Of a stretch of DNA of 64,000 nucleotides, positions 2,532-64,000 are shown in pieces. Location of the stretch: NCBI RefSeq assembly GCF_006345805.1, contig NC_043000.1, positions 77,066,001 through 77,130,000 of the forward strand, read 5' to 3'. The DNA is from Octopus sinensis (Eukaryota). A model generated the notes under the pieces. That model searched no databases and was not told the DNA's origin. It saw nothing but the letters and a program-made list of their open reading frames with translations. The translations under genes and the position numbers were made by a program. Position 1 is the first letter of the stretch, and each line of letters opens with the position of its first letter.

Positions 2532-3880
2532 TTACCTTATTTCCTCCGGGTCCGGCCGACGGGGGGGACCCGTCTCTTCTGCCTTCGAGGGCCGTGGAAT
2601 CGGCGTACTGCTGTTCTTCTTTTCTACATCCTTCAGGGCATCCCCCTTGCTCATTCTGGATGGGCCTACGTCTTTTCTAAAATCATTTGCTAACGTGTTG
2701 AACCCTCTCAGTCCCATCACGTAGCATCTCCAGTCTCCACCTCCTCGATGTGTTGTGTCTCCACTCTACGCATCACTTCCCTGTTTGCGGTGTTCATCGC
2801 GACGTACACCCTATTTTCCCTCTCCGGCTTCTTCGCCTTCTACACTTCTCTCTTCTCTTTACTTATGGTTTTCTCCGGGGAGGGGTTATTGTGTTTTCGC
2901 TTTGTAGCAGCAACCTGTGACCACCCCTCCCCTACTTCTGTTGCAGGTGTTGTTTCTATTGCCGCCACTTGCGAACTTGGCTTTGTGGGTTCGCTCTTCT
3001 CCTTCTCTGCCGGCTTGCAGTCTTTCTTGATGTGGCCCTTCTTGCCACAGGTGAAACACCTGGGCTTCCGGCCCTCCACCATTACTGCCATCCGGCTCTC
3101 TCCTATCTCAATCACCTCGCCTATCTCTTCCAAGACGTCCGGCTCGGCCTGAATGATAATTTTTACTTTCTGTCCTTGCCACTTTTTGGCGTCTTCCACC
3201 GTGGCATCGCGAATCTCTATTTTTTCTTCCAGCCCTGCAGTGACTCCAGCCACTATTAGTTCGGGCTCAACCTCTGGCGGAATATTAGCAATCGTAATTC
3301 TTGAAATGCGCCTTCCTCTATAAATAGGTAGAAGGGTTACTGCCTCTGTTTTCAGGGGTTCCATAGACTGCTCCCTTGTTTCTTCCTCTGTTTTGAACCT
3401 GGTTTCTACGGTGCCATATCTCTTACCCCTGGTTAAAAATGTAATTTTTTCCCAGATGGGTTTTAAGCACGCCTCCACTTCCTTCTCCGAAGAAAAGTCT
3501 ATTCTTCTTTCCTTATTTCTATAAGTTTTATATATTATTGTTTTTCTTTCTATCTCTTCGAGAGATTCTTTCGTCTGGTTCAGCTTAATTTTATATCCGT
3601 TTCGGGATACTATCTTTTTAACTTCGTCCAACTTGGTTAGGTTTATCTTTCTTTCTTTTGGACTCACCGCTTCAGCGAAGTTCAGCGCCTTCTTTGCCAT
3701 GCTTGGCACATCCATATTTCTTCTGACTCGCCTACTTTCCTCTTCGTCCGAGGAAATGTCGGGCAAGGCTACTGTTCCTTCTAGGCTGGACATCTCTGGA
3801 CTCAGGACCTGGGTTTGGTCTTCCGTTCTGTCCGCCTTCGGGCTGGCCATTATTGGCCTACCCCTCCTCAGCGGCTTCAC
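2532..3880 (-). pseudogene. ORF1 gag-like protein with CCHC zinc knuckle; premature stop at 2840 plus a frameshift near 2735
   Basis: CFTCGKKGHIKKDC knuckle. RGKRYGTVE.RF is shared with copy B. Homology continues past the TAG (YVAMNTAN ~ YMAVKAAN; FRKDVGP ~ FFHDVGP). Confidence 0.85.
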
Positions 3881-4489
3881 TAAAATTAGTCAAATAAATT
3901 CGACTAAAAAAGACAACTTACTTTTTCTTTTTTTCTTTCACAAATAACAACTGGTAGTAGAATGTAGAGTACAAGTTTGCTATTCTTAAACAAAAATGAA
4001 TATGTATATATTTCACATTCGTTATTACATACATATTTAAGCACTTAACGTTTTCTCATGCAAAACCATTCATACGCAAATACACATACACATGTATGTC
4101 AACACACACAAAATTCGTGAAAAACAGGAAACTTGCTAGGCAAGACTCAAGTTTTGTCAATAACCCTTTGTCCTTCAGGGATTTTTTCTCTTCTTTGCTT
4201 TGGACGGTTTTGTGCGTTTATAAGTAATGTATGTGTAGCATCTGTGTTTTGTATGTGTACATGTTTATTTGAAATCAATTTTTTGCGTTATTAGTAAGTT
4301 GATATAATTTTGCTCTCGTACTATTATCTCTGTTATTATATACTGTTGGTCTACCTGTTTTGTCTATTGTTGTCTAACTGACGAAGTCAGCCTTCGCGCG
4401 AAGACTTCGCGTTGGTGTTCCCCCCTCAGTGGGGGAAAACTACAATTAATTTGGATTTACCAAAGGCTTGTTAAAGCCATTTGTTCAAG

Positions 4490-5846
4490 ATGGAGTCCCC
4501 CATCTCTTATTCGCCCGTGACGAGCGAGGATGAATACCCGGCGTTGTCGCCAAGTAAAAAAGAGGCGTTGTCGCCGAAGAAAAAAGAGGCGGCGTCGCCC
4601 AAAAAAATGGAAAAACCAGTACCAGCATCAACTCCAGCAAAAAAATTCGCTGAAGTGGCTGGGAAAAAGATCAAAAAAATAAATATAGAAAATTTTAAAA
4701 AATTTGCAGACTGTGTAAAAAAAGAAGGCACAGAAGTGACTGTGGCCACAAACATACAAATACATGACGATATAGAAAAAAAAAGAATAATATATAAAAC
4801 TTACGACACAACGAAAAAAATGATCCAAAAATCGAAGAAAAAAAAATAGAGTCTTGTCTAAAACCTTTTATGGATAAAATAACGTATATAAACAGAGGAA
4901 AAAGATACGGCACAGTGGAGGTGCGTTTTACTACGGAGGAGATAGCGAGAGAAAAAGAATCGATGGAGCCAATCAAAGCGGAAAACATTGTCTTACTACC
5001 ATTGTATAAAGGAAAAAGGACGTCGAAAATTTCGATGAACAACATCCGCCAGAGGCAGATGCTGAATGTCTGGTGGCAGCAGTGATGGTAGGTCTGGAGG
5101 AAAAAATAAACATCCTCCAGGCCACACAGTGGAGGAAGAGGAGTTCTGGAAAGGGCAGAAAATAGTGATAGCCATTCAGGCGGAGGTGCAAACACTGGAA
5201 GAAATTCCAGAAACGGTAAAGATTAGTGAAGACGAGAAAATAACAGTTTTCGTGGAGGGCAGGAAGCCGAGGTGCTTCGGCTGCGGCAAGAAGGGTCATG
5301 TAAGGGCGGAATGCCAACCCCAACCCAAACCGCAGGAAGCACCTAAGCCAAAAGAAAAAGAAGATAATGTGTCACCAGAAGCAGCGTCGGACGGCCCAGA
5401 AGGGAAGACTGAAGGTGTGGAGGTGACGGTGACAGCAGAACCAGCGGCGGAGGAAAAAAAGAGCGAGGAAAAGATAAATGAGGAGGGGTGGGCAAAAATT
5501 ACCGGAAGAAAAAAAGAAAAACGGAAACCACCCCTCCCAGAGTAATCTAAAAAAGAAAAAAGAGTCAATGAACTCATATATGGCCGTAAAGGCAGCAAAT
5601 AGCAGACTCGGAAACGTGTTGGCAGCCATGGCCAAAGTGGAGAAAGTAGTGAAAAAAAACGACTTTGTAATTTACAGAATAGGCCGGAAGGATTACGGGC
5701 GGATAAAGTCAGAATTCTTCCATGACGTAGGCCCACTTAGATTGGATGTGACATCTCCACATATATTCGAGGGCCTACGTCAGACTCCCCCACGAGGCCC
5801 AGAAAAAGTGTTAGAAGAACAAGAAAAAACCGAACCACTGATATAA
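4490..5846 (+). pseudogene. ORF1 (zinc knuckle), several frameshifts
   Basis: ORF-track fragments 4481-4849, 4870-5085, 5066-5545 (CFGCGKKGHVRAEC) and 5478-5846 are collinear with copy A ORF1. Confidence 0.85.
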
Positions 5847-5854
5847 GGTAAGTA

Positions 5855-8800
5855 ATGGATTACATTTATGTTGGTTGTTTGAATGTGCGCGGCCTGGGAG
5901 CAGGCTGGAAGCAAGGTCGCTTCCTGCATGATATCAGTCGCGTAATTTAGATGTTATTGTTGCTACAGAAACCCGGTTAGAGGGGCCAAGAGGTCTACTC
6001 CCGCTGTTTGACGGCTACGAGAGTTTTTTCTCTCCTGGCAGTCCTACAGGCGGGAGTGGGGTGTTGGTCCTATTAAAAAGAAACGGGTTTCTGAGAAAAA
6101 GTTAATTTTTGCAGATCCAGAAGGTAGGCTGGTCGTCATGGATTTGACGTTCAGTAATGGTAAAGTTATCAGACTGGTTGCAATTTACGCACCCAACCAT
6201 ACAGGGCAAAGTGATTATTTTCGTGAACTAGAAAACTTTCTTGGTACTTCGCATTCATTAGTGGTGCTAGGAGACTTTAACACAATTTGCAAAGCGGATG
6301 TAGATTGTGTTGGCTCGCGTCCAGATAGAAAAGGCAACAGTGGCTTCATGGAACTGCTAAGCCGCTTTGAGCTAGCAGATCCTTATAGGCTGGAATTTCC
6401 GAACGCTCCATTGTGGACATGGTCAAACAGCGACGGATCTTCCAGGTCATATTTAGATAGAATACTAATTAGAAAAGTAGACAGTAAAATAGCTAAGTGT
6501 CCACAGTTTTACCCGATCAGCTACAGTGATCATAAAATGGTCACTGTAAGCTTGACATAGATAAGGTTAAAAATAGAGGATCCGGTTACTGGAAACTTAA
6601 TACGTCCCTTTTGGCGATTAAGGAGTACAAAGACCGGATTAGGAATATAATTCAGAGGGCACTATCTGGTACCATCATTAATAACAAATGGTGGTACGCC
6701 TCAAACGAGCCATCAAGTTTGAGTCTATTAGATATAGCATAGGAGTAGTGGCTAGAGAGGCTAGAAGGGAAACTACTCTAGTTAAGGAATTAGAGGAAGC
6801 CATGAAAACTGGCTCTGCGGCTCAGGTGGCGTCCAAGAGACTGGTGTTAAACCAGCACTCGAGGCCAAACACATGGGCTGCATTGTCAGGGCTAGAATCC
6901 GTCATATGGGATGTGAAGGAATCAACGCCGTGAGATGGGCCCGAGTGGTGGAAGCTCAGCATGGTAACGATGCCACGATTCGATCTTTGACGAACCAACA
7001 AGGTGAGTTGATAAACGAACCCGAGGAGATGTGTGAGGCCTTTCAGGAGCACTTCGCTCAGCTTTTCGGTGAGTGCGGCGGACTGGATAGGAGGAGGGCC
7101 TTTACGGACCTACTCGACGGTCTGCCGCGCTTATCGGGGCGAGATGCGGAGGGCTGTGAAGGGCCAATCACGCCTGGGGAGGTGTTTGAGGCAATGGCGG
7201 ACTGCGGCGCGGGCAAGGCGCCAGGTTTGGATGGTCTACCCTATGAGTTATATAAGAGTATGCCAGACTTGTTCGGGCACCTACTGCGGAGGTCTATGCG
7301 AACTGGCAGCAGAACGGGCTTATACCCAGATCTGTGCGCCGGGGAGTAGTGACTCTCGTCAGAAAGGACCCGAGCAAGGGGAGTGCATTGATAATTTCAG
7401 GCCCATCACTCTGCTAAACACAGAGTTGAAGATTTTGGCCAAAGTGTTATCGAAAAGATTGGCGCGTGTCGCGGATGGTCTGATCGGAGAGGCACAGACA
7501 TGTGCCGTTCCGGGCAGATCCATTCAGGATAATCTCCATCTAATGCGGTACACTATAGAGGTTTAATAGTGATTCTGGCAAGGGCGGGGCACTGGTCCAT
7601 TTAGACCAATCTAAAGCTTTTGATAGGGTCGACCATCGTTACCTGGTATCTGCCCTGGCACAGTTCGGGCTGAGCCTTGGCTTCCTCAGGTGGATTATCC
7701 AAATTTATGATAACATCGACTCGGTAGTTCGGGTGAACGGCTTCTTGTCGAAGCCGTTCAAAATCAAACGCTCGGTTCGTCAAGGGTGTCCGCTCTCCCC
7801 GCTTTTGTACGTGATGGCTCTTGAGCCATTACTGCGAAAACTGAGCGGCATCCCGAGACAGCAGGTAATGGAAAATCAGTGTCAGCGTACGCGGATGACA
7901 TCACCATCATCGTAACCGAAATGGACCACCTATGTAAAGTAGGCAAGGCCATAGAGGTTTACGAGACGGTGACAGGAGCAAAAGTTAATCGCGAAAAGTC
8001 AGTCGGCTTGCAACTCGGCACCTGGAGAGGCAAGTCGATGCCTCCTGACAGCGTCGTGGGACGTTGGACGGAGGGTCCGATTAAACTGCTAGGGGTCTGG
8101 TTCGGTCCAGACCTCCAAATAGAGAAGAATTGGGGCGAGGTAACGAGCAAGGTGGCTGCAGTAGCCAAGACCTGGTCTTGGCGGTGGCTATCCCTGAAAG
8201 GGAGGGCGGAGGTGGCCAATGTGTTTATCGCATCGGTTATCACCTACCGCCTTTCCGTCGTTCCTTGCCCTGACTCGTGGTTGATCAAGTTGGAAAGAGA
8301 GCTCTTCTACTTCTTGTGGAAGGGCGGGAAACCACTTGTGAAACGCTCTACTTGCTGTCAACAACCGTTAAAGGGTGGGCTAGGGATGACTTGGCTGATG
8401 ATGCGCAGACATGCGCTGAGGTTAAGACATCTGTGGCTCTACCTGGATGGTGAACGGGTGTGGTCTTCGCTAGCAAAACTGATGTTTCCCAAGTTCACTA
8501 GTTTCGGTGGATGGGAAACCTGGCTGAATCGTAGATCGAAACTTGGTACTTGGTACACGGAGTGTCGCAAGGCTCTCCTGCTATTCCGTCGCTCGGGCAA
8601 CGCCTGCGGTGGGGGTTCCACCACATTCCTCTATAGAGGGTTGGTAGAGGCGGAATGTGAAGATACCTTGGGGGAAACCCTAGGTCTCGACGATAATCAG
8701 CTGGCCAGTCTGTTCCGACGTACGTTCGAGCCGAGGACACTGGACAACTTCCAGAAGTCTCTGGCATGGCAATGCTACAGAGGAGCTCTACCTGTTCGGG

Positions 8801-9240
8801 ATAAACTCGCAAGGCACGGTGGCCAAGACAGTCCGATATGTCCAAGATGCGGGCGGGATAGGGAAACCGTCCCGCACGCTATTGTTCATTGTCCGGACGT
8901 GTCTGAGGTGTGGGTTTATGCCGAACAGCTGTTGTCAGGTACACGAAGAGTACAGCTGTCGACTGAGTCGATTACAAAAATTGACCCACCGGATTTCCTC
9001 GTGAATGAAGGTAAGTTTCGTTTTCTCGTTGTAGTAGCAATTGCGAAAGAGGTGATATGGAAGACGAGAATGAAAGGGGTACAGTCAGGCAAGTTCATCT
9101 CCGGCCCTGGTTTGATGAATTATTTCATCTTTCACCTGAAAAGGAAGATAGGGCTGGAGAGAATATGCCTGACTAGGAGAGTGTATGAAGAACGATGGAA
9201 GGATGTAGCACGAAAGTTGCGAGTGAAAGATACAACATAA
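5855..9240 (+). pseudogene. ORF2 APE-RT-CCHC, frameshifted
   Basis: LGDFN, YLDRI, SDH, KAPGLDG, NFRPITLLN, VRQGCPLSP, AYADD, GGLGM and C-terminal CPRCGRDRETVPHAIVHC. Confidence 0.92.
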
Positions 9241-14285: not shown

Positions 14286-14335
14286 ATAGAGGAATTATGT
14301 ACATTAGACGGATATTTGTCCTCATCTTGTTTGTT

Positions 14336-14381
14336 AACACAACGTTTCGGTTGATATACCTTCCAGCCTTCATCAGGTGTC
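14336..14381 (-). ncRNA. Minimal type I hammerhead ribozyme motif
   Basis: Minus strand: GACAC-CTGATGA-A-GGCTG..CAACC-GAAACGTT-GTGTT; helix I GACAC/GTGTT, palindromic ACGT helix III. Confidence 0.75.
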
Positions 14382-14528
14382 TTGGGGAAATTTCGAACTT
14401 GGGTTCTCATTCCTAAGGTATTTTTCGATGTTATTAGTAATATTATTATTATTATAATTATTATTAATAATAATAACAACATCGAAAACTACCTTAGGAA
14501 TGAGAACCCAGGTTCGAAATTTCCCCAA

Positions 14529-14574
14529 GACACCTGATGAAGGCTGGAGGGTATATCAGCCGAAATGTTGTGTT
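14529..14574 (+). ncRNA. Minimal type I hammerhead ribozyme motif (helix III C>T)
   Basis: GACAC-CTGATGA-A-GGCTG GAGGGTATAT CAGCC-GAAATGTT-GTGTT. Confidence 0.7.
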
Positions 14575-16659
14575 AACAAACAAGATGAGGACAAATATCC
14601 GTCAAATGTAAATAATGTATCAACATTTAGTTCTCTCATTCATTCTTGTTAGGTCTACTTCCTTTCCCTCATTACTCTCCTCTCCTATTTACTGTGCCAT
14701 GCTGCATGTGTAACAAGGATGGCGTTGGCACTGCATGTATTCAACATTATCATTGAACCTCTCTCCCATCATTATGGTTGTGTAATGGAGAGATGGCATC
14801 AGACATCTGTCCATATTCATACTCCTTCCACATTCTTTATCCATCACACTTTCTCTCTCTCTCACACACACATTACTCCCTCCCAGCTCACTCATTATTC
14901 TTATATATTACTCTTACTTCCAGGACTGCTATCACCGTCTCCTTCCTTCCACTTTCTTTTCCCTGAGTACCGTTCATACTGTTTTGATTAAGTCCCCTTA
15001 CAAATAAAGATGTTGTTGCTATCACTGTTTCTTTTCTGTAACTCCTTCCTTTATTACTCACTTGTCACTATCACATTTGTTTTTCATACTACCACGGGTT
15101 GGGTAGGTCATCACAGTCCTGGTTTTGGCATATGGCCATTCAGTGTAGCAGGACTATGCAAGCTAAAATTATTTGGTCACTTTTGTCTTTGCTAAATCCT
15201 CATTATTCTCTCTCTGGACTTTTTCATTACTGTCACTGTCAGTTTGACGTTCTTCAACAACTTTTAAAAATCTTTCTAGAGTGAACTTAACTGTGATGTT
15301 GACTTGCTAGATGCCCTCCTGGGAGACCATAAAGAGTAAAGCAGCAGCTAGAAACATGGATTAATACCATAAAGTTAGATTTGATCCTTGTGTCTACTAC
15401 TGGAATTGAGAATTAATGCATTGACAGGTGTCTGTGATCACCACGCATGGCTTGAGAATTTATGTTTATGATGCTGTGATTTACCAGTTGGGGCTGGATC
15501 AGCCTATCTTGGATGAAACTTACAAAGATATAAATATAGTAATGAGGATGAGTGATGAGAGAGTGACAGGGGATAATGTTTAGCAATAAAGAAGGGATGA
15601 TGACCTAGGAATGGTTGGATACATAGAGATTCAATGAAATGCTGTCCCTCATAGCAAAGTTGTGATAGAAACGAAATGATAGTATATATGTACATTGATA
15701 AGGGGAGAAGGTGAGTAAGACTGGGTGAATAATGAAGAGAAAATAGTAACTGGAGAATTAATATGAACATAATGGTGAGGAGAGACCCAAATATAGACAT
15801 GCATTTTGATTTTCATCATTATCATCATTTTACATAAGTTTTCCCATGTTTGCAAGGGTTGTAAAGATTCTTCCCCAACACAGCTCTTCATCATAAGTTA
15901 TAGTCTTTTCTCATCATTTTCATGAGGCTCAGCCTTTTAAGATCAGCTTCTCATGTTTCCCTTGGTCTCTTCCTTCCTCATGCTACATCCACTGAGCTCT
16001 CAATACCTCTTTAAAAAATTGATCTCTTTATGTATCACATGTCTATATCAGCCAGTCTTCTCTCTTATAAATCACATCTGATTCTTCTTATACCCAACTT
16101 ATCTCCTAACTCATTTGTACTAAGTGGCTCAACACATGCTAACATTAAAATATTAACTGGAACATACTTTTTTCCAACATTTGCAATTCTTTTGTATTTA
16201 GGGCCAATGTCTTGCTAATGTGGAGTATTGCACATTATACACAAGCAATGAACAATATACCCCTCACTCAAGAGAGAAACTTTTTGTTGATAACCAATAG
16301 CTAAGAACTTGTCTGCTAGAGTTAAAGGTAACTATTGTGCTGATTCCACCTACTGAGGCACAAATGTGTGACAGCATTAATCCTCTTTCCCTCAATTACA
16401 TGTTAAGTTCAGAAAAGTTTTGATTCTTGAAATTATCTACTTGTTTCCAAGTTATTTCAGAGTTAATCAAACAACTAACATCGTGAACATATTTATATGA
16501 AGAACAGGAAACAAACAAGAAGCCATTGTTTACAAATCAAGGTAAATATCAACTTAGTCGCATAAATACACAGACAAACATACTTAATGTGTGTATATAT
16601 ATTCAAATATATAATGTATAAATATGCATATTTATAAATAAGCCACACACACACACACA

Positions 16660-32400: not shown

Positions 32401-32790
32401 ACAGTACTACATTTTAGAGATGAGGTATTCTGTACATTATTTACATTGGCCGGATATGTGTCCTTCGTCTGATTTACTCTGATGTTGTTGTTGTTGTTCT
32501 TCTTGTTCTTGTTCTTGTTCTTGTTGTTGTTGTTGTTCTTCTTCTTCTTCTTTTTATTATTATTATTATTATTATTATATTATTATTATTATTATTATTA
32601 TTCCAGGCACTGCCTTGAATAAATAATAATAATAACATCAGCAAAAAACACCTTAGGAATAAGAACCCAGGGTTGGGTTCAAAATTCTGCCAGAACACCT
32701 GATGAAGGCTGGAGAGTAAATCAAACGAAACTTTGTGGTAACAACAAACAAGATGAGGACACATATCCGTCCAATTTAAAGAAAGTAAAT
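32401..32790. mobile_element. Palindromic hammerhead element, diverged copy with short left arm
   Basis: Left arm AGAGATGAGG..TGTACATTATTTACATT. Right arm TTCCAGGCACTGCCTTGAA-(TAA)n-CCTTAGGAAT..CACCTGATGAAGGCTGG..CGAAAC. Confidence 0.75.
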
Positions 32791-35823: not shown

Positions 35824-35885
<62 letters not shown>

Positions 35886-35989
35886 CCGGAGTAAACACAT
35901 AAATGTGAAACAAGGTGGAAAAAAGAGTACTCAAATACCAGTGGTAGAGTAATATGCTTTATTTTAAGCAGCAGAAAATTCAACAAAAT

Positions 35990-36027
35990 CTGTTACTCTG
36001 AGTTTCTCGTTGCCGTTCATCAGACAG
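35990..36027 (-). ncRNA. Minimal hammerhead ribozyme motif
   Basis: CTGT-CTGATGA-ACGGCAACGA-GAA-ACTC A GAGT-A-ACAG; helix I CTGT/ACAG, self-complementary helix III. Confidence 0.7.
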
Positions 36028-37026
36028 TTTTTGCTAGAATGGAACTTATATATTAATTCAATCTATACTCTTACAAACGCTACACCTTTAAAAAGAAATG
36101 GACTTGTTTGATTGGCCCTTTAGAAAAAACGGTCAATCTTCGAGCGATAAACAAAAAGGTCAAAAATATATGTATATATATATAAAAAACTTATAAAAAT
36201 TATAAAATTATAAAATCCGAGGAAAAACCTATTGCCGTTAATGAAGACAGTACAAATTAATGCATAGAAATTAAACCTGTTATAAATACTGCAATACATA
36301 TTTATATTAAAATCCACATATATATATCAACATACACAAAAGGATGCGCGTAAACGCCATACATACATATACAGGCGTATGAATATGAATCTAAATTATA
36401 CACATAAAAGCATGTGTACATATATTCACGCAAACCGTCTCGCACGCAAGCTAAAATTCATCTATGTAGCAATTCTCATATATTGAGCAAGGAGGGGGAA
36501 CGAAAGAAAGGGAAAGAGAGAAAAAGGAACGAAGGAGGGGCGGGGAAAAAACTTGTAGCGATGTTATTGGCATCTATAGAGGCCAGTATACATACACAAG
36601 TTTGAATTGATACATATACATATCGTCGTGTGTATGCGTGCTTAAGCACAAGCATACTTTCACTTACACATACACAGATACGCATGCTTACAAATACATA
36701 TGCTTTGCTATACACATACTTATATAAACATTCTAATTTTGACAACATTGCTTTTTTTAAAAAACATTGCTTTTAAAAAAGGGTGCATAATAAAAATATA
36801 TACGAAAGACATATAAAATGAAATATAACATCCTATTTTGGGTCATTTATAAATAATCAAGGTAATATAAATAATCAAGGTAATCCTATGCAATACAATA
36901 ACATGAAAACAAAGTTTGTAGGTTTTTCCTAATATATATGTAGAAACAATAAGACTTTGCTATAGATCCGTCATAGCGCCCAAGAGTCAAAATCAAAATC
37001 AAAAATCAAAATACAAAATATATACT

Positions 37027-37410
37027 CTATCCATATGGTATATTTATATTCGACATTTTAAATTTAGCCGCGTGCCTACATAAGTTCATTAACTCACTTC
37101 TTTGATTCAAAGAATTATTGTCTTTGAATAAGATGTGCATTTTCTCTAATAAGCAAAGCCTGCACTTGAAATTATATTTGTAAGCTCCATGCCTGTATGG
37201 TGCCGCCCTGTCCAGAATGATCCATGTCACGTTGAAAGGTGGGGCTTCCTTTTCTTTTAGTTCCCAGACATATTTTGCTAGGCTGGTTTTCTTCCTATTC
37301 TCTGGGTATTTAAAAGAATTCTTATGAGAATAAAATCTTGTTTTAAATGAATTTTCTGAAGCCCCTGTGTATGTCTTGTATTCCGATGAGCCTTCCACTT
37401 GCACCTTGTT
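37027..37410 (-). pseudogene. Penelope-type GIY-YIG endonuclease, N-truncated
   Basis: YTGASENSFKTRFYSHKNSF...TSLAKYVWELK...CRLCLLEK...LNQRSEL..CRH. Confidence 0.88.
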
Positions 37411-37985: not shown

Positions 37986-38820
37986 TTCAGTAGTTTTATT
38001 TTTATAGCGTGATTTCACTTCACTACCGAGCGCAGCTCTGTGTGCCTTGGGTATGTGCTGTGATTTGTTGTGATGCTCTGATGGTTATTGTATGGAAAGT
38101 GTTCTGCGTAGGATGTGTGCAGTGCCTAGTAGTGCAATTTTCTGTATGTTATATGTGTTTGTAAGTCCTGGTGTTTTTGTTATGTATTTGTCTGAATATT
38201 TTTTTATCATGCCTAATGCACCTACTATGATAGGAATTGTTTCTGTTTTCAGGTTCCACATTCTAGTTATCTCTATTTCCAGGTCTTTGTATTTTGAGAG
38301 TTTCTCCATTTCTTTTAGAGACACGTTGTCATCTGCCGGTATTGATACATCAATTAGAAAGCATTTTTTTTCTTCATGATCTCTGACAACTATATCTGGT
38401 CTGTTGGCCTTAATTTCTCTATCTGTGTGTATCGGCATATCCCAGAGTATGGTTGCTTTCTCGTTTTCTGTGACCTTTTCTGGTATGTGCCTATACCATC
38501 TTTTTCTGTTGTTATTCCATAATGTTGGCATAGCTTCCAATGTATGTAGGTTCCAACTCTGTCATGTCTGTGAATATATCCTTCTTAGCCAGGACTGGGC
38601 AGCTAGAGAAATATGATTTATTGTTTCTTGTCCATCTCCACATATTCTGCAGTTACTTGTAATATTTCTTTTCATTACATGTTTTTGGTAATTTCTGGTG
38701 GGGAGGCTTTGGTCTTGTGCTGCAATTAAAAATCCCTCTGTTTCTGCTTTGAGTCCTGAGCTTCTCAACCATTGCTGGGATTTTTCTTTGTCTATTTCTT
38801 TTGAGTTTAGTTTAGTGCAG
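37986..38820 (-). mobile_element. Dong/R4-clade LINE 3' fragment with restriction-like endonuclease, flanked by (TAA)n
   Basis: AAQDQSLPTRNY, CRICG..QETINHI, ILWD, NRPDIVV, IDVSIP, EKLSKYKDL and IPIIVGALG motifs. Both junctions lie in TAA repeats, the known Dong target. Confidence 0.9.
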
Positions 38821-46025: not shown

Positions 46026-46208
46026 AGTTTTATATTTAAGAGATGAGGAATTATGTACATTATTTACATTATTTACATTTGTCCTTATCTTGTTTGTTGT
46101 TAAAAACGTTTCAGGTGATATACCCTCCAGCCTTCATCAGATGTTTGGGGAAATTTCAAACCTGGGATCTCATTTCTAAGGTATTTTTCGATGTTTTTAT
46201 TATTATTA

Positions 46209-46246
<38 letters not shown>

Positions 46247-46352
46247 GTTATTATTATTATTGTTGTTGTGTTGTTGTTACTATTCTTCTTCTTCTTCTTC
46301 TTCTTCTTCTTCTTCTTCTTCTTCTTCTTCTTCTTCTTCTATTTTCTTCTTC

Positions 46353-46395
<43 letters not shown>

Positions 46396-46966
46396 CATTA
46401 TTATTATTATTATTGAGTGAGAGATCAGTTCATGCCATCAAAGTGACACTGGGGTAAAATATACGAAACCCAATATACCCATCATGACTACCCGTCTGAT
46501 AAAGGTACACCAGGCACATGCATCACAACCATATGTGCGCGACATGGTGATCTCATATCAAGATAAACAGCACATGACCTTGCAGGTGGGGCCCAGTTAG
46601 AATTTTCTTCAGGTTGAGTAGCCCATCCCGCTCAAACGGTCCCTGAATAAGGGTTGTTTAAGGATGTTGAAAGAACCACCCATGTTTCCAGAGGTGAACT
46701 ATTCAAACCCCAAAGAATCCCTCTCAACACATGGCTATGATGCTCCTCCACTACTTCTGCTCGTGATCAGAGATGCAAATATCGTCAGCCACTAAGGGAC
46801 ATGCTCAACTGGTTAAGGTCAAACAACTGACAAATAAATCTGTGGTATTGAGCAGAATATTTGCTGTAGCCCATCTTTATACCAAGAAAAACAATGTACA
46901 TGATAACACTCCAATCAGTTAAGATCAGAAGCCATGAGAGCCACTGCCTGGTACTGCATCAGGGCA

Positions 46967-46997
<31 letters not shown>

Positions 46998-47557
46998 GAG
47001 TGAGAGAGCAGTTCATGCCATCAAAGTGACACTGGGGTAAAATATACGAAGCCCAATATACCCATCATGACTACCGTCTGATAAAGGTACACCAGGCACA
47101 TGCATCAAACCATATGTGCGCGACATGGTGATCTCATATCAAGATAAAATAAACAGCATATGACCTTGCAGGTGGGGCCCAGTTAGAATTTTCTTCAGGT
47201 TGAGTAGCCCATCCCGCTCAAAGGTCCCTGAATAAGGATTGTTTAAGGATGTGAAAGAACCACCGTGTTTCCAGAGGTGAATTATTCAAACCCCAAAGAA
47301 TCCCTCTCAACACATGGCTATGATGCTCCCCCACTACTCTGCTCGTGATCAGAGATGCACATATCGTCAGCCACTAAGGGACAATGACATGGTCTCAATG
47401 TTAAGGTCAAACAACTGACAAGCAAATCTGTGGTATTGAGCAGAATATTTGCTGTAGCCCATCTTTTATACCAAGACAAAACAATGTACATGATAACACT
47501 TCCAATCAGTTAAGATCAGAAGCCATGAGAGCCACTGCCTGGTACTGCATCAGGGCA

Positions 47558-47599
<42 letters not shown>

Positions 47600-47845
47600 C
47601 ATTATTATTATTATTATTATTATTGTTGTTGTTGTTGTTGTTATTATCATTATTATTATTATTGACCTGAAAAATAATAATAATAATAATAATAACAAAA
47701 CAACAACAATAGTAATAATAATAATTATAACATCGAAAAATACCTTAGGAATAAGAACCCATGTTCGAAATTTCCCCCAAACGAGGGTACATCAGCCGAA
47801 GACAAACAAGATGAATACAAATACCCGCCAAATGTAAATAATGTA
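46026..47845. mobile_element. Palindromic hammerhead element with a nested dimer in its microsatellite spacer
   Basis: Left arm 46026-46195; right arm 47663-47845 (internally deleted); imperfect flanking repeat TAAGTAG(G/A)TC. Confidence 0.75.
46415..47558. mobile_element. Tandem dimer of the ~550-bp (TAA)n-inserted element
   Basis: 46415-46967 and 46998-47558, separated by (ATT)n. Confidence 0.85.
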
Positions 47846-48689
47846 AGTAGATCAATGCTTGCTAGACTTTACAATTTTTTCATTCAATATCCAGACAGTT
47901 CTGATCAATTACCAATTGATAATCAATACAAACCAACTGTATGACCGTTGTCAACCTAAACAAGTTACACAGTTACACTAGATTTACAGATTTCTTGTTG
48001 ACAGGAAGTTCAATTCCCACAACGACCTAAATATTTATGTTAATAATCGTACCTTATTGGTTTTATTCCGTTCTGATGTAATGTGTATTGCACAAATAAA
48101 AGACACAAACACACACACATTTATATATATACATATATATATATATATATACATATATATATACATACATACATACATACATATATACATGCGCATAGTT
48201 CTACTCATACGTTTTCATATACTTTAAATTAACTATGCGATATTTAGATCTTGAATTGATGTCTATCTACTGTTTATTATGTTCATAAACACATACCCAC
48301 ACACATACACATGACACATACATTCTTACACACATGCATAGATACATGCTTACATATATACATTCATATGTTATAGGGTCTCATACATGTAATATAGTCA
48401 TCTGAAAAATTTTGTCCAAGTGAAATTTACCAATTTACCAACAGAGGGACATAATCCCAGTGCGATCAATTCATATTCATATTTGTTTAGCGAATAGGAC
48501 AGATCTGGTCTTTAAAGCCAAATGATGGAAGCAATGGATATGTTTCAGTCATATCAGACCTTGTCACTGAAGCATAATCTACTCTGTTAGGAAGACAGAA
48601 AGGAATAATATATGTAGTTGAAATTGAAGTAATACATGTGTGTGTGTGTGTGTCCTATTGTTACATACATAAGAGAAACCCTAGTCGTA

Positions 48690-52949: not shown

Positions 52950-54240
52950 TAGGGAAATTTCACAAAAAAAAAACAAATGACGAACACAGGTGGTTTAGAC
53001 AACAAACACATATATTAGTTTAACGCTCGGGAAGTGAAAAAGTCTTTAACGTTTCGAGCCTACGCTCTTCTACAGAAAGGAACACAGAAAGAAACAAGGA
53101 GAGAAAATAAAAAATGTATAGTGGCTAGCGATCTATCATGGCGAATGACGGACAGAGTGGTCACACAGGAGAGCTAAGAAGAAGAGGAGATAATAAAGTA
53201 GTGGTGATGCCAAAACGAAGGTGCGCGTGCCTGTGTATAAGATAGCATGTATATGGGTGTGGAAGAGGGCTGGTGACCTTGATGTGTGTGTATGTGTAGG
53301 TGCGTGGATGATGACATGGGGCTGGGAAGTGGTCAGTGCTAGTGTGTGCGTGGTGGTGTGATATGATGTGGTGTTGTGTGGTATAGTGGTGTATGGTGTA
53401 GTGGTGTGTGGTGTGGTGGTGTTGGGACGTGGGGAGGTGAGAGTGGGGAAAGCAAGGGTAGGGTGTGGGTTACGCTGAGGGTGAGGGTAGAGGTGGGGTA
53501 TATGGGAGTGGGTGTAAGGATGGGGTGGGGTGGATGGGGTGGATGGGATGGATAGGGAATGTAGAGTTGGATTGTGTAGGGGGTGGGGTTACGAGGGAGG
53601 GGTGACGATGAAGGGAGAGGGGGAAAGGAGAAGGTGGGTAGGAGCAAGGAGAAGAGAGAAGGAGTGTAGGAGTGAAGAGAAGAAGTAGAAGTCGGAGCAG
53701 GAGAGGAGAGGTGGGTGGGAAGAAAGTAGGTGTGAGAGGGAGAGAGGAGAGGGGAGGAGGGTTAGATGAAGAGAGGAGAAGACTTGAGCCCATGTGGCGC
53801 AAAGAAGTGAAGAGAGAAGATTAATCCCTGTTCACGGCGAAAACGGGAGTCCGGATGGCCCCTGTGCAAGGACAATTCGAATACAGACAAGTGTTGCAAA
53901 GAGTGACCGGTAGTGCGGAAATGGCGCGAGACCGGGGTGCCATTACTGAATCGGATGTCTCGGAGGTGTTCCGCGAACTGGTCAGCCAAGTAGCGTCCCG
54001 TTGTATAGAGAAGGGCAGAGAGAGCAGGAGATGTAGTAGATGATAATTGGAAAAAGTGCAGGTGAAGGAGTCGGTGATATGATGGAGTCGATGATGGGTG
54101 TCGGTGAGGAGGGTGGTGTTGGAGATGTAAGGGCAAATGCGGCAGCGTGGGCGGGAGCAGGGGAATGAGCCGAAAACTTTTCGGCATTTCTCACGCTCTA
54201 CTTCACACGTTTCGCTCACCATATGCCGAAAAGTTCCCAC
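52950..54240 (-). mobile_element. Penelope-like element 3' fragment (Cys linker + GIY-YIG, pyrimidine-rich UTR, pLTR)
   Basis: CSRPRCRICP, SFTCT, YYISCSLC, TGRYLADQFAEHL, PVSRHF, REQGLIFSL..APHGL; hammerhead-like motif at 53044-53079. Confidence 0.88.
53044..53079 (-). ncRNA. Hammerhead-like motif with variant core CTGTAGA
   Basis: CTTT-CTGTAGA-A-GAGC GTAG GCTC-GAAACGTT-AAAG. Confidence 0.65.
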
Positions 54241-54377
54241 TCTCCTATTTTGTTATACAACAACTCTACACATTTCCGTAATTTTAAACATTAATATGTG
54301 ACTAACACGCAAGAGCAATATTGGATGGTAATAATGAAATAAGCAGATGTGCATCAAGAGGAAACAGTTAAGATTTG

Positions 54378-54663
54378 CAGTTCCATATTTAAGAGATGAG
54401 GAATTATGTACATTATTTACATTTGACGGATATTTGCCCTCATCTTCTTTGTTGTTAACACAACATTTCGGCTGATATACCCTCCAGCCTTCATCAGGTG
54501 TCTTGGGGAAATTTCTAACCTGGGTTCTCATTCCCAAGGTATTTTTTGATCTTCTTCTTCTTCTTCTTCTTCTTCTTCTTCTTCTTCTTCTTCTTCTTCT
54601 TCTTCAGGTCACTGCCTGGAATCGAACTCGGAATATTGGAGTTCGATTCCAGGCAGTGAACTA

Positions 54664-54709
<46 letters not shown>

Positions 54710-54858
54710 TCGAAAAATACCTTAGGAATTAGAACACAGATTCGAAATTTCACCGAGATACCTGATGAAGGCTGGAGGGTATATCAGCTGGAACGTTGTG
54801 TTAACAACAAACAAGATGAGGATAAATATCCGTCAAATGTAAATAATGTAAATAATGT
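54378..54858. mobile_element. Palindromic hammerhead element, best copy, with central B-box hairpin and 11-bp TSD
   Basis: Inverted arms; central hairpin 54609-54659 containing GAGTTCGATTCC; AGTTAAGATTT at 54366-54376 and 54859-54869. Confidence 0.88.
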
Positions 54859-55709
54859 AGTTAAGATTTATCCTAACTACCTGTATTACATGCACACACA
54901 CACACACGCACACACACATACACACACGCATACACACACACACACACATGCATATATCTTTCTCCCCCACCCCATAAATCAAACGGTAGTAATTCGGACA
55001 ATCTCATTTAGTCCGATACTTTTGCAATCGTTTTCACACAGTGAATACTCTAATTGCTAGAAACTGCAGTCAAACTCCTTTAAATCATATTCTATCATAA
55101 GGTCACAATGGAAAATGTATTCCTAGATACACTATTTGAACAAAAGTAGAGATATTGACGCCTTCGATCAGATCAGAAGTGTGCTCGATCAGCGCTGACT
55201 TAGGGTTCAACTGCAAAATGTCAATAACGACAGCACCACGCCTGTCACTAAGTTTTAAATGGGTGGATGTGTGGGGTGAACCAGTGGTGCGATTCAATTG
55301 CAAAGGCTGTAGCCAGGAATAGAAACCAGATCGCTGAACTCGACTCTTGAAAGACATCTGTTTAGCAGACGGCACGTCGCTCTCTACAGGCAAAGCGATT
55401 TTAGATTTAAAACACCACCACCGCCGCCACCATCAGCGACTGCAAAAACGCTAATTTATATATATATATATAAAAAAATATATATAATAAGGTTTTAATT
55501 CTGTATTTTCCTGCCCCGAACTAAACAACGAAAGGTTAAACCAAGGAATTATAAACTGGAGAATTATAAAGATTTAATCTATTCTCATTTAATCTCTTTT
55601 AATCACAGGTAACAACAATTCTCCCCACCTCTCTCTTTCTCTCTCTAATTACATTTCGTTTGAAAATTTTAGATGAAGATTAATCAATAGAAGAGATTAT
55701 AATATTTCA

Positions 55710-63944: not shown

Positions 63945-64000
63945 TATTTTCATTATTTACATTATTTACACTTGACAGATATTTGTCTTCATCTTGTTTG
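63945..64000 (-). mobile_element. Start of another hammerhead-element arm at the window edge
   Basis: CATTATTTACAC TTGACAGATATTTGTCTTCATCTTGTTTG matches the arm end. Confidence 0.7.

Follow-up and report, generated by a model that had tools for sequence, protein, structure and literature searches.

The window, the whole 64-kb stretch of Octopus sinensis DNA analysed here, carries at 54366-54869 one decayed copy of a dispersed non-coding repeat family, and further copies lie elsewhere in it. The features of the copy at 54366-54869, followed by the other copies, are listed by position and strand.

54366-54376, no strand: left target-site duplication, 11 bp
54378-54409, minus: 32-nt tail, on the left (long) arm only; Penelope-type extension
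54410-54549, minus: long-arm body, including the 9-nt repeat at the short-end site
54457-54502, minus: minimal type I hammerhead motif; intact core, C>T in the helix III palindrome
54550-54605, minus: long-arm trinucleotide run; (AAT)n in most copies, another triplet in this copy
54606-54638, minus: tRNA-like head, 3' part with B box (54618-54629); A box lost
54639-54663, plus: tRNA-like head, 3' part with B box (54639-54650); A box lost
54664-54707, plus: short-arm (AAT)n run
54707-54858, plus: right (short) arm body, which stops before the tail
54757-54802, plus: minimal type I hammerhead motif; GAAA core broken
54859-54869, no strand: right target-site duplication, 11 bp
14287-14619, no strand: second copy, two bodies head-to-head, heads deleted
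32402-32790, no strand: third copy, a long left arm with an internal deletion, a head remnant and a short right arm
46026-47849, no strand: fourth copy, a long arm (46026-46237) and a short arm (~47664-47849)
63945-64000, minus: terminal piece of another arm, truncated at the window edge

The palindromic layout that an earlier note had described at 54366-54869 is present, with arms at 54403-54595 and 54664-54856 that are 84% complementary over 193 nt. The 11-bp target-site duplication is likewise there as a direct repeat, with one extra base before the left arm. A B-box-like motif had been reported in each arm, and we found exact matches on the minus (54618-54629) and plus (54639-54650) strands, the only two matches with at most one mismatch in the whole 64-kb window (chance mean, 0.16). 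The feature read as a central hairpin (54609-54659), on the other hand, consists of two 5'-truncated heads, and full heads of ~80 nt occur elsewhere in the genome. Twin hammerheads were also claimed; a motif does lie in each arm, but the majority form of the family is found in neither, the left one (54457-54502) carrying the C>T change inside its ACGT palindrome and the right one (54757-54802) having helix changes in addition to its broken core. The note itself had said that the complete ribozyme is a consensus reading. The arms are also unequal at their outer ends, which the earlier reading overlooked, with the 32-nt tail present on the left arm only.

The same design was said to recur at 14286, 32401 and 46026, with one arm beginning at 63945. 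The body is indeed shared by these copies, but the likeness is otherwise loose and the head is mostly missing. The left arm of the copy at 32402 lacks the ribozyme, and a 1.1-kb insertion within the trinucleotide run separates the arms of the copy at 46026, whose outer ends carry a 9-10-bp duplication. The 64-kb window holds five or six family loci, which is above the genome average.

The full unit of the family is ~270 nt long and comprises a tRNA-like head of ~80 nt, an (AAT)n run and a body of ~185 nt that includes the minimal type I hammerhead and the 3' end. We read 30 body-anchored, 30 head-anchored (one a duplicate) and 30 centre-anchored loci, and L031, a duplicate of L020, was dropped. 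In 26 of the 29 head-anchored loci, the head is followed by a body on its own strand, and the other three have a different repeat after (AAT)n. Based on four loci in 672 kb not chosen for the family and a genome size of 2.72 Gb, we estimate ~16,000 loci (95% range, 4,400-41,000), with L111 and L171 (the window itself) and one lone 22-nt head fragment left out. An exactly intact ribozyme motif was found in 1,852 arms genome-wide compared to 0 for a reversed control. The 95 arms compared, a sample biased to well-preserved copies, differ from their majority by a median of 4.3%, with CpG sites the most changed. The body contains a 61-codon open frame, whose sole database match is a predicted Octopus sinensis protein, a host gene model with a copy of the repeat in it. 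These properties agree with the earlier description of a non-coding family, in that the units are short, dispersed, high in copy number and flanked by target duplications.

The earlier note had made the existence of a longer tRNA-like head with A and B boxes a test of its reading, and the complete ~80-nt heads found elsewhere in the genome are of this kind. The majority sequence of the head is colinear over its full length with tRNA genes of the same genome (27 distinct genes compared), and the best match is tRNA-Arg(TCT), with 45 of 69 columns identical and a z of 7.2 against 200 shuffles; other isotypes gave z values of 2-6.5, just six amino-acid types being sampled. A strict A box is present in 18 of 29 heads and a strict B box also in 18 of 29. 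Since the sense strand of the unit has no run of four Ts (the antisense strand has one), Pol III could read the unit through, and judging from these sequence signals the family RNA is likely made by Pol III from the A and B boxes of the head. The tRNA search proposed for the head gave no call, as neither the window nor 42 loci contained a tRNA by ARAGORN, and an Rfam scan for the ribozyme and the head, at the gathering threshold on the window and at E<=10 on six loci, gave none either.

The majority hammerhead has a 5-bp helix I, a CUGAUGA core, one extra A, a 5-6-bp helix II opened by G-C, GAAA, a palindromic ACGU and a GUU triplet. A hammerhead descriptor matched the family majority but 0 of 20,000 dinucleotide shuffles. 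The majority also shows the traits of the minimal hammerhead of Penelope-like elements (PLEs), namely a conserved core, an extra base at 9/10.1, G10.1-C11.1, a helix I of 4-5 bp and a palindromic 15.2-16.2, which upholds the earlier identification at the level of the family majority and makes this motif a candidate ribozyme of the Penelope-type minimal form. Among 90 complete arms, the core is intact in 63, and both core and palindrome in 44. Covariation in helices I and II, which had been named as a test, is absent (1 compensatory, 57 one-sided, 43 broken and 804 unchanged of 905 scored cells); this says little either way because the family is star-shaped and consists of dead copies of one master, ~4% from their majority. 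Core positions are mutated somewhat less than composition-matched positions (21 changes observed, 34 expected), which we do not read as selection because about half of the arms were retrieved by their similarity to a query that covers the core. Folding of one 146-nt arm end revealed no excess stability (z 0.31). According to the accessible text of PMC4209133, the minimal PLE hammerhead shows no cleavage as a monomer and low cleavage as a dimer. The family ribozyme fits the form described there, but its helix II is shorter, at 5-6 bp compared to the 7-8 bp described for schistosome minimal ribozymes. Since the twin motifs lie on opposite strands and one transcript has only one of them in sense orientation, they are probably a by-product of Penelope-type inverted insertion and not a functional pair.

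The strongest and decisive evidence for mobilisation of the Penelope type is that paired arms end one long and one short. In a count of 39 head-to-head pairs, in which L017, with two left arms, is entered twice, L015 is compound and the copy at 14286 is scored short/short though its left arm reaches into the tail, we found 36 long/short, one long/long and two short/short pairs (p 2e-8 versus an even split). The independent centre-anchored set gave 11 long/short pairs of 12, the twelfth being truncated, and three further pairs were two long/short and one short/short by BLAST ends. The extra tail, present on exactly one arm of a long/short pair, measures 32-35 nt, and the short arm stops 25-45 nt before the tail end. 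The long ends are sharply placed and slightly favour some three additional bases; the short ends scatter over ~20 positions around the 9-nt repeat. Target duplications vary from 8 to 14 bp. A duplication score of at least 8 was reached by 23 of the 39 pairs compared to 0.9% of mismatched flank pairs, and by 8 of 12 in the centre-anchored set compared to 1 of 132.

Penelope elements, as far as they are described in PMC3846280 and PMC8557442, carry two inverted pLTRs arranged head-to-head, one of which has a 30-40-nt tail, and are flanked by 8-10-bp duplications. In vitro, both target strands are cut and extended by the anole Poseidon protein, whose two start sites delimit the tail, and Poseidon inserts equally well with a dead ribozyme, so that cleavage is not needed (PMC11167929). 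Unequal inverted arms of this kind also occur in 2 of 29 loci (L187 and L200) of a coding Hydra-like family in the octopus genome. We are highly confident that the insertion of this family is of the Penelope type. Regarding the claim that Penelope machinery mobilises it, the long/short insertion ends are as expected, but no Penelope partner was found among the coding families sampled.

Where pairs are intact, they meet at a fixed small hairpin that joins both head starts, and this junction occurs at 320 exact sites compared to 0 in the control. Among the loose ends that reads show upstream of the head, this hairpin is the most frequent. The idea that the two-base loop at the centre always faces the short arm was rejected, as it faces the long arm at nine loci and the short arm at three, in a sample drawn from 30 of the 320 sites. 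Deletions lie beside the centre in either arm, and both arms are whole in just 1 of 30 centre-anchored loci. At L040, L231 and L248, tail stubs are joined straight to the centre, and many copies consist of one full arm and an inverted stub of 9-25 nt, several of these with a duplication at the stub. Single-arm insertions with target duplications also exist. Later deletion in unstable palindromes could yield some of these shapes. Arms are 91.8% identical within a pair and 91.2% between pairs, a difference that does not separate one RNA template from two.

The autonomous partner was sought in several ways. The arm had been proposed for alignment with the pLTRs of autonomous Penelope elements, and no real similarity to the body was found in ~120 coding Penelope-like loci with 1.5 kb of flank on each side. 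The genome does contain several young coding Penelope-like families, with frames of up to ~950 aa, whose hammerheads are of the same minimal type as that of the repeat family but of different sequence. No long frame continuing from the tail was found among 150 scored of 39,087 candidates, and five of the six longest frame candidates beyond the tail were rejected as microsatellite or unrelated read-through. There was no multi-copy alternative context upstream of the ribozyme among 26 matches, no partner in five stretches picked for closely spaced ribozymes and no common continuation among loose read ends beyond the tail (agreement 0.42-0.52). A search for longer proteins gave a host gene model as its one match. 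A Pfam search of six frames from the window and loci gave matches for an L1-like frame only. Apart from GIY-YIG matches, it is from motifs that we take the neighbouring elements to be Neptune, Hydra, Naiad and Dong/R4. The partner may have died out, diverged or escaped sampling; its absence from these searches weakens the claim of Penelope membership, but not that of Penelope-like insertion.

The family is represented in RNA, with 6,407-8,811 family reads per 11.5-12.9 million records in three RNA-seq runs, counted on a 651-nt stretch that includes ~35 nt of unrelated repeat. The two mate directions are equal in depth in these three libraries, whose source species may differ from that of the window. 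We found no pile-up of molecules at the start, the end or the cleavage site in these three fragmented-cDNA libraries, perhaps from another species and of a type in which a pile-up at the cleavage site would show poorly. The RNA runs also have more A>G and T>C sites than the DNA contigs; the organisms differ, so this is not readable as editing.

We propose, as a moderately probable reading, that the family combines a tRNA-like head, (AAT)n, a minimal hammerhead and a Penelope-type 3' end, and that its transcription by Pol III and its copying in trans by a Penelope-like reverse transcriptase/endonuclease are both likely. We consider it likely that a Pol III monomer is the template, and give two-ended priming with fold-back, the simplest way to read the centre, an even chance. 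Under this proposal, Pol III would make an RNA of ~270 nt from the A and B boxes, starting a few bases upstream of the head, and in palindromic source copies the 5' end of this RNA would be the small hairpin borrowed from the neighbouring head. The Penelope protein would bind the borrowed pLTR-like 3' part and nick both target strands ~10-12 bp apart, and both 3'-OH ends would prime cDNA, one at the internal site and the other 32-35 nt further on at the tail end. One cDNA would then fold back at its 5' hairpin and join the other by full overlap or microhomology, and the outcome would be a palindrome in which a single arm bears the tail and deletions are common beside the centre. As for the hammerhead, it probably travels as part of the region that the protein recognises and need not cleave; a cut would part the promoter from the priming sites.

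Some of these observations could also arise if the whole palindrome were the template, through Pol II read-through in either direction; the family would then be a non-autonomous Penelope derivative, and its tRNA heads would stem from an old SINE that inserted into a pLTR and would ride along instead of serving as the working promoter. A copied centre would simply explain both its fixed form at 320 places and the two loop polarities, and family reads are abundant in ordinary RNA-seq. We nevertheless judge this explanation unlikely, though a serious rival: it sits poorly with the many copies made of one full arm and a stub, both boxes and the T-run-free sense strand are kept in the majority, and a long/short parent would give a sense tail in one direction only. 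We regard as very improbable that the family is an ordinary LINE-dependent tRNA SINE with an RTE, Dong/R4 or CR1/L2 partner, in which the 9-nt repeats are the tail, the inversions come from twin priming or later rearrangement and the hammerhead is incidental. Short arms do end in one to three copies of the 9-nt repeat, tandem repeat tails are known in some LINE-dependent SINEs, LINE-like ends commonly adjoin the (AAT)n run and the Penelope partner was not found. However, in each pair exactly one arm continues past the 9-nt repeat with a conserved stretch of 32-35 nt, the ends look like those of Penelope elements and not like a terminal poly(A) or repeat tail, and the LINE ends are later insertions within (AAT)n that split pairs. 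Twin priming of the L1 type leaves non-overlapping inverted parts, unlike the two overlapping full arms seen here.

The long inverted arms, the total of ~500 bp and the high copy number would also suit a foldback element or TIR MITE, in which the palindrome would serve as the terminal inverted repeats and a transposase would move the DNA. Ends of unequal length and duplications of varying size rule out a TIR MITE: one terminus is 32-35 nt longer than the other in 36 of 39 pairs, the short ends and the duplication lengths vary over the ranges given above, and insertions of single arms with duplications exist, which together leave any such origin extremely unlikely. Replication through a ribozyme-cleaved circular RNA, as proposed for tandem type I hammerhead repeats, draws on the type I hammerhead with its palindromic helix III and on the somewhat less mutated core (21 against 34, possibly a search bias). 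It is highly improbable in our view, as the copies start at the tRNA head and are not permuted at the cleavage site, read ends do not pile up at that site, and direct tandems are few (e.g., L015 and L053 among 59 loci). The distinction from direct-repeat retrozymes drawn in the earlier note therefore holds, the loci being mostly head-to-head pairs or single arms.

The combination of a tRNA head and a hammerhead is not new in itself, as Sm-alpha illustrates, and non-autonomous Penelope elements are also known. The schistosome elements Sm-alpha and Sj-alpha lie in tandem arrays. They are tRNA-related, SINE-like repeats with a hammerhead and >10,000 copies, according to the portion of PMC2770079 available, and resemble the octopus repeat in all three respects. 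Their hammerhead is described as canonical (PMC4209133, in its accessible part), unlike the minimal form in the octopus repeat, and the accessible text of PMC2770079 describes neither Penelope-type long/short inverted ends nor a Penelope partner for them. Penelope-like elements such as Poseidon, Neptune and Hydra, as far as PMC4209133, PMC11167929, PMC3846280 and PMC8557442 describe them, share with the octopus repeat the minimal type I hammerhead with its extra base at 9/10.1, G10.1-C11.1 and palindromic 15.2-16.2, as well as head-to-head arms, a tail at one end (30-40 nt in Penelope) and a variable ~10-bp duplication. Unlike them, the octopus repeat has no coding frame, is ~270 nt long and carries a tRNA-derived head that replaces their own promoter. 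Animal non-LTR retrozymes are short non-coding elements with type I hammerheads that have been proposed to be non-autonomous derivatives of Penelope pLTRs (PMC7229834; bioRxiv 10.64898/2026.07.22.740005); the available parts of these accounts describe direct tandem repeats and circular RNA, but no tRNA head or inverted tailed pairs like those of the octopus repeat. Non-autonomous elements of Chlamys such as MRC1 (PMC8557442) and short Penelope elements of Heliconius (PMC6685494) are given in the consulted sections of those papers as non-coding, with pLTR-type ends, and as inferred users of Penelope proteins. They have 3' sequence in common with a known autonomous family, whereas none was found for the octopus repeat, and those sections do not mention a tRNA head. 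A Pol III small-RNA promoter on a non-autonomous element whose non-LINE partner is often unidentified is described, in the excerpted account of PMC10886601, for Helenus, Ajax and Cassandra (TRIMp3). TRIMp3 elements use the LTR mechanism, with a PBS, a PPT and 4-5-bp duplications, and the octopus repeat would be their Penelope counterpart.

Our search of the open-access literature turned up neither an octopus hammerhead SINE nor an element that combines a tRNA head with ends of the Penelope type. The 1994 paper of Ohshima and Okada on the tRNA-derived octopus SINEs OK, OR1 and OR2 reportedly includes a likeness to tRNA-Arg and a palindromic feature flanked by (AAT)n. It is possible, though rather doubtful, that our repeat has already been named as one of these three without a Penelope link, a likeness that we draw by description only. 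Two papers list OR1 and OR2 among the CORE-SINEs (PMC4824008, PMC4758252), and their available passages cite no ribozyme or Penelope link. We suggest tentatively, at somewhat less than even confidence, that this is the first described SINE of Penelope elements, in which a Pol III tRNA promoter is joined to a Penelope recognition and priming module, the strict long/short palindromes record two-ended priming by a Penelope enzyme, and fold-back at the 5' hairpin rebuilds a source copy with two promoters at each insertion.

By definition, a SINE is a parasite of LINEs, and it is only recently that parasites of LTR elements with Pol III promoters (TRIMp3) have been described. If our proposal is true, a tRNA-headed parasite of Penelope elements fills the third case, and what the Penelope enzyme needs in cis shrinks to ~185 nt. 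Thousands of short, readable insertions would offer a test of how Penelope elements form inverted repeats with one tail, and also of whether Penelope hammerheads need to cleave. Repeat annotation would put the family in the wrong class, and a family arm is present in at least one host gene model. Octopus is known for heavy RNA editing, and the copies of this family are long hairpins in such an animal.

Two coding Penelope-like elements lie in the window on the minus strand, and one of them directly adjoins a copy of the repeat family:

52975-54250, minus strand: coding Penelope-like element, 5'-truncated, directly adjoining the repeat copy at 54366-54869
35885-37400, minus strand: young, Hydra-like coding Penelope element, embedded in (TA)n

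The adjoining element, which we take from its motifs to be of the Neptune GIY-YIG type, belongs to a multi-copy family in the genome, and it carries a minimal hammerhead of its own at ~53040-53075 as well as a short inverted repeat at 54175-54235. We rejected this family as the autonomous partner that would mobilize the repeat. The Hydra-like family displays 94-99% identity among its copies, with frames of up to 766 aa, and the window element contains a hammerhead-like motif at 36002-36023; at two further loci (L187 and L200), the family occurs as inverted copies with unequal arms, one being longer. A third young Penelope-like family (loci L062-L090, G000) has frames of up to 796 aa, and its 3' repeat contains a hammerhead-like motif whose core is non-standard. 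Also within the Penelope-like families of this genome, the GIY-YIG domains at loci L143 and L158 are, judging by motif, presumably of a Naiad-like type.

In the majority sequence of the body (window 54707-54858 together with the family), one frame is open across 61 codons, spanning the ribozyme and the tail, similar to the situation in pLTRs that overlap the Penelope ORF start. A peptide search for a continuing frame and a search for longer proteins found none extending it. The first 36 residues of P0001, a predicted O. sinensis receptor-like isoform, correspond to translated sequence of a family arm, possibly reflecting exonization or a gene-model artifact.

The (AAT)n run within the repeat is a recurrent site of LINE-like insertion (window 46415-47559; loci L004, L023, L026, L027, L037, and L270), and these inserts, presumably Dong/R4-like plus a second family, separate the arms of pairs. 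Elsewhere in the window, the 3' end of a Dong/R4-like element lies at 38085-38561 (minus strand), and 2840-9240 holds broken L1/Tx1-like LINE remnants with gag-like, endonuclease, and RT frames.

At locus L060 (1200-1850), RNA runs showed 15-21 A>G and 30-36 T>C sites versus 11 and 12, respectively, in DNA contigs, the RNA and DNA coming from different organisms. The hairpins of the repeat family are candidate substrates for A-to-I editing.
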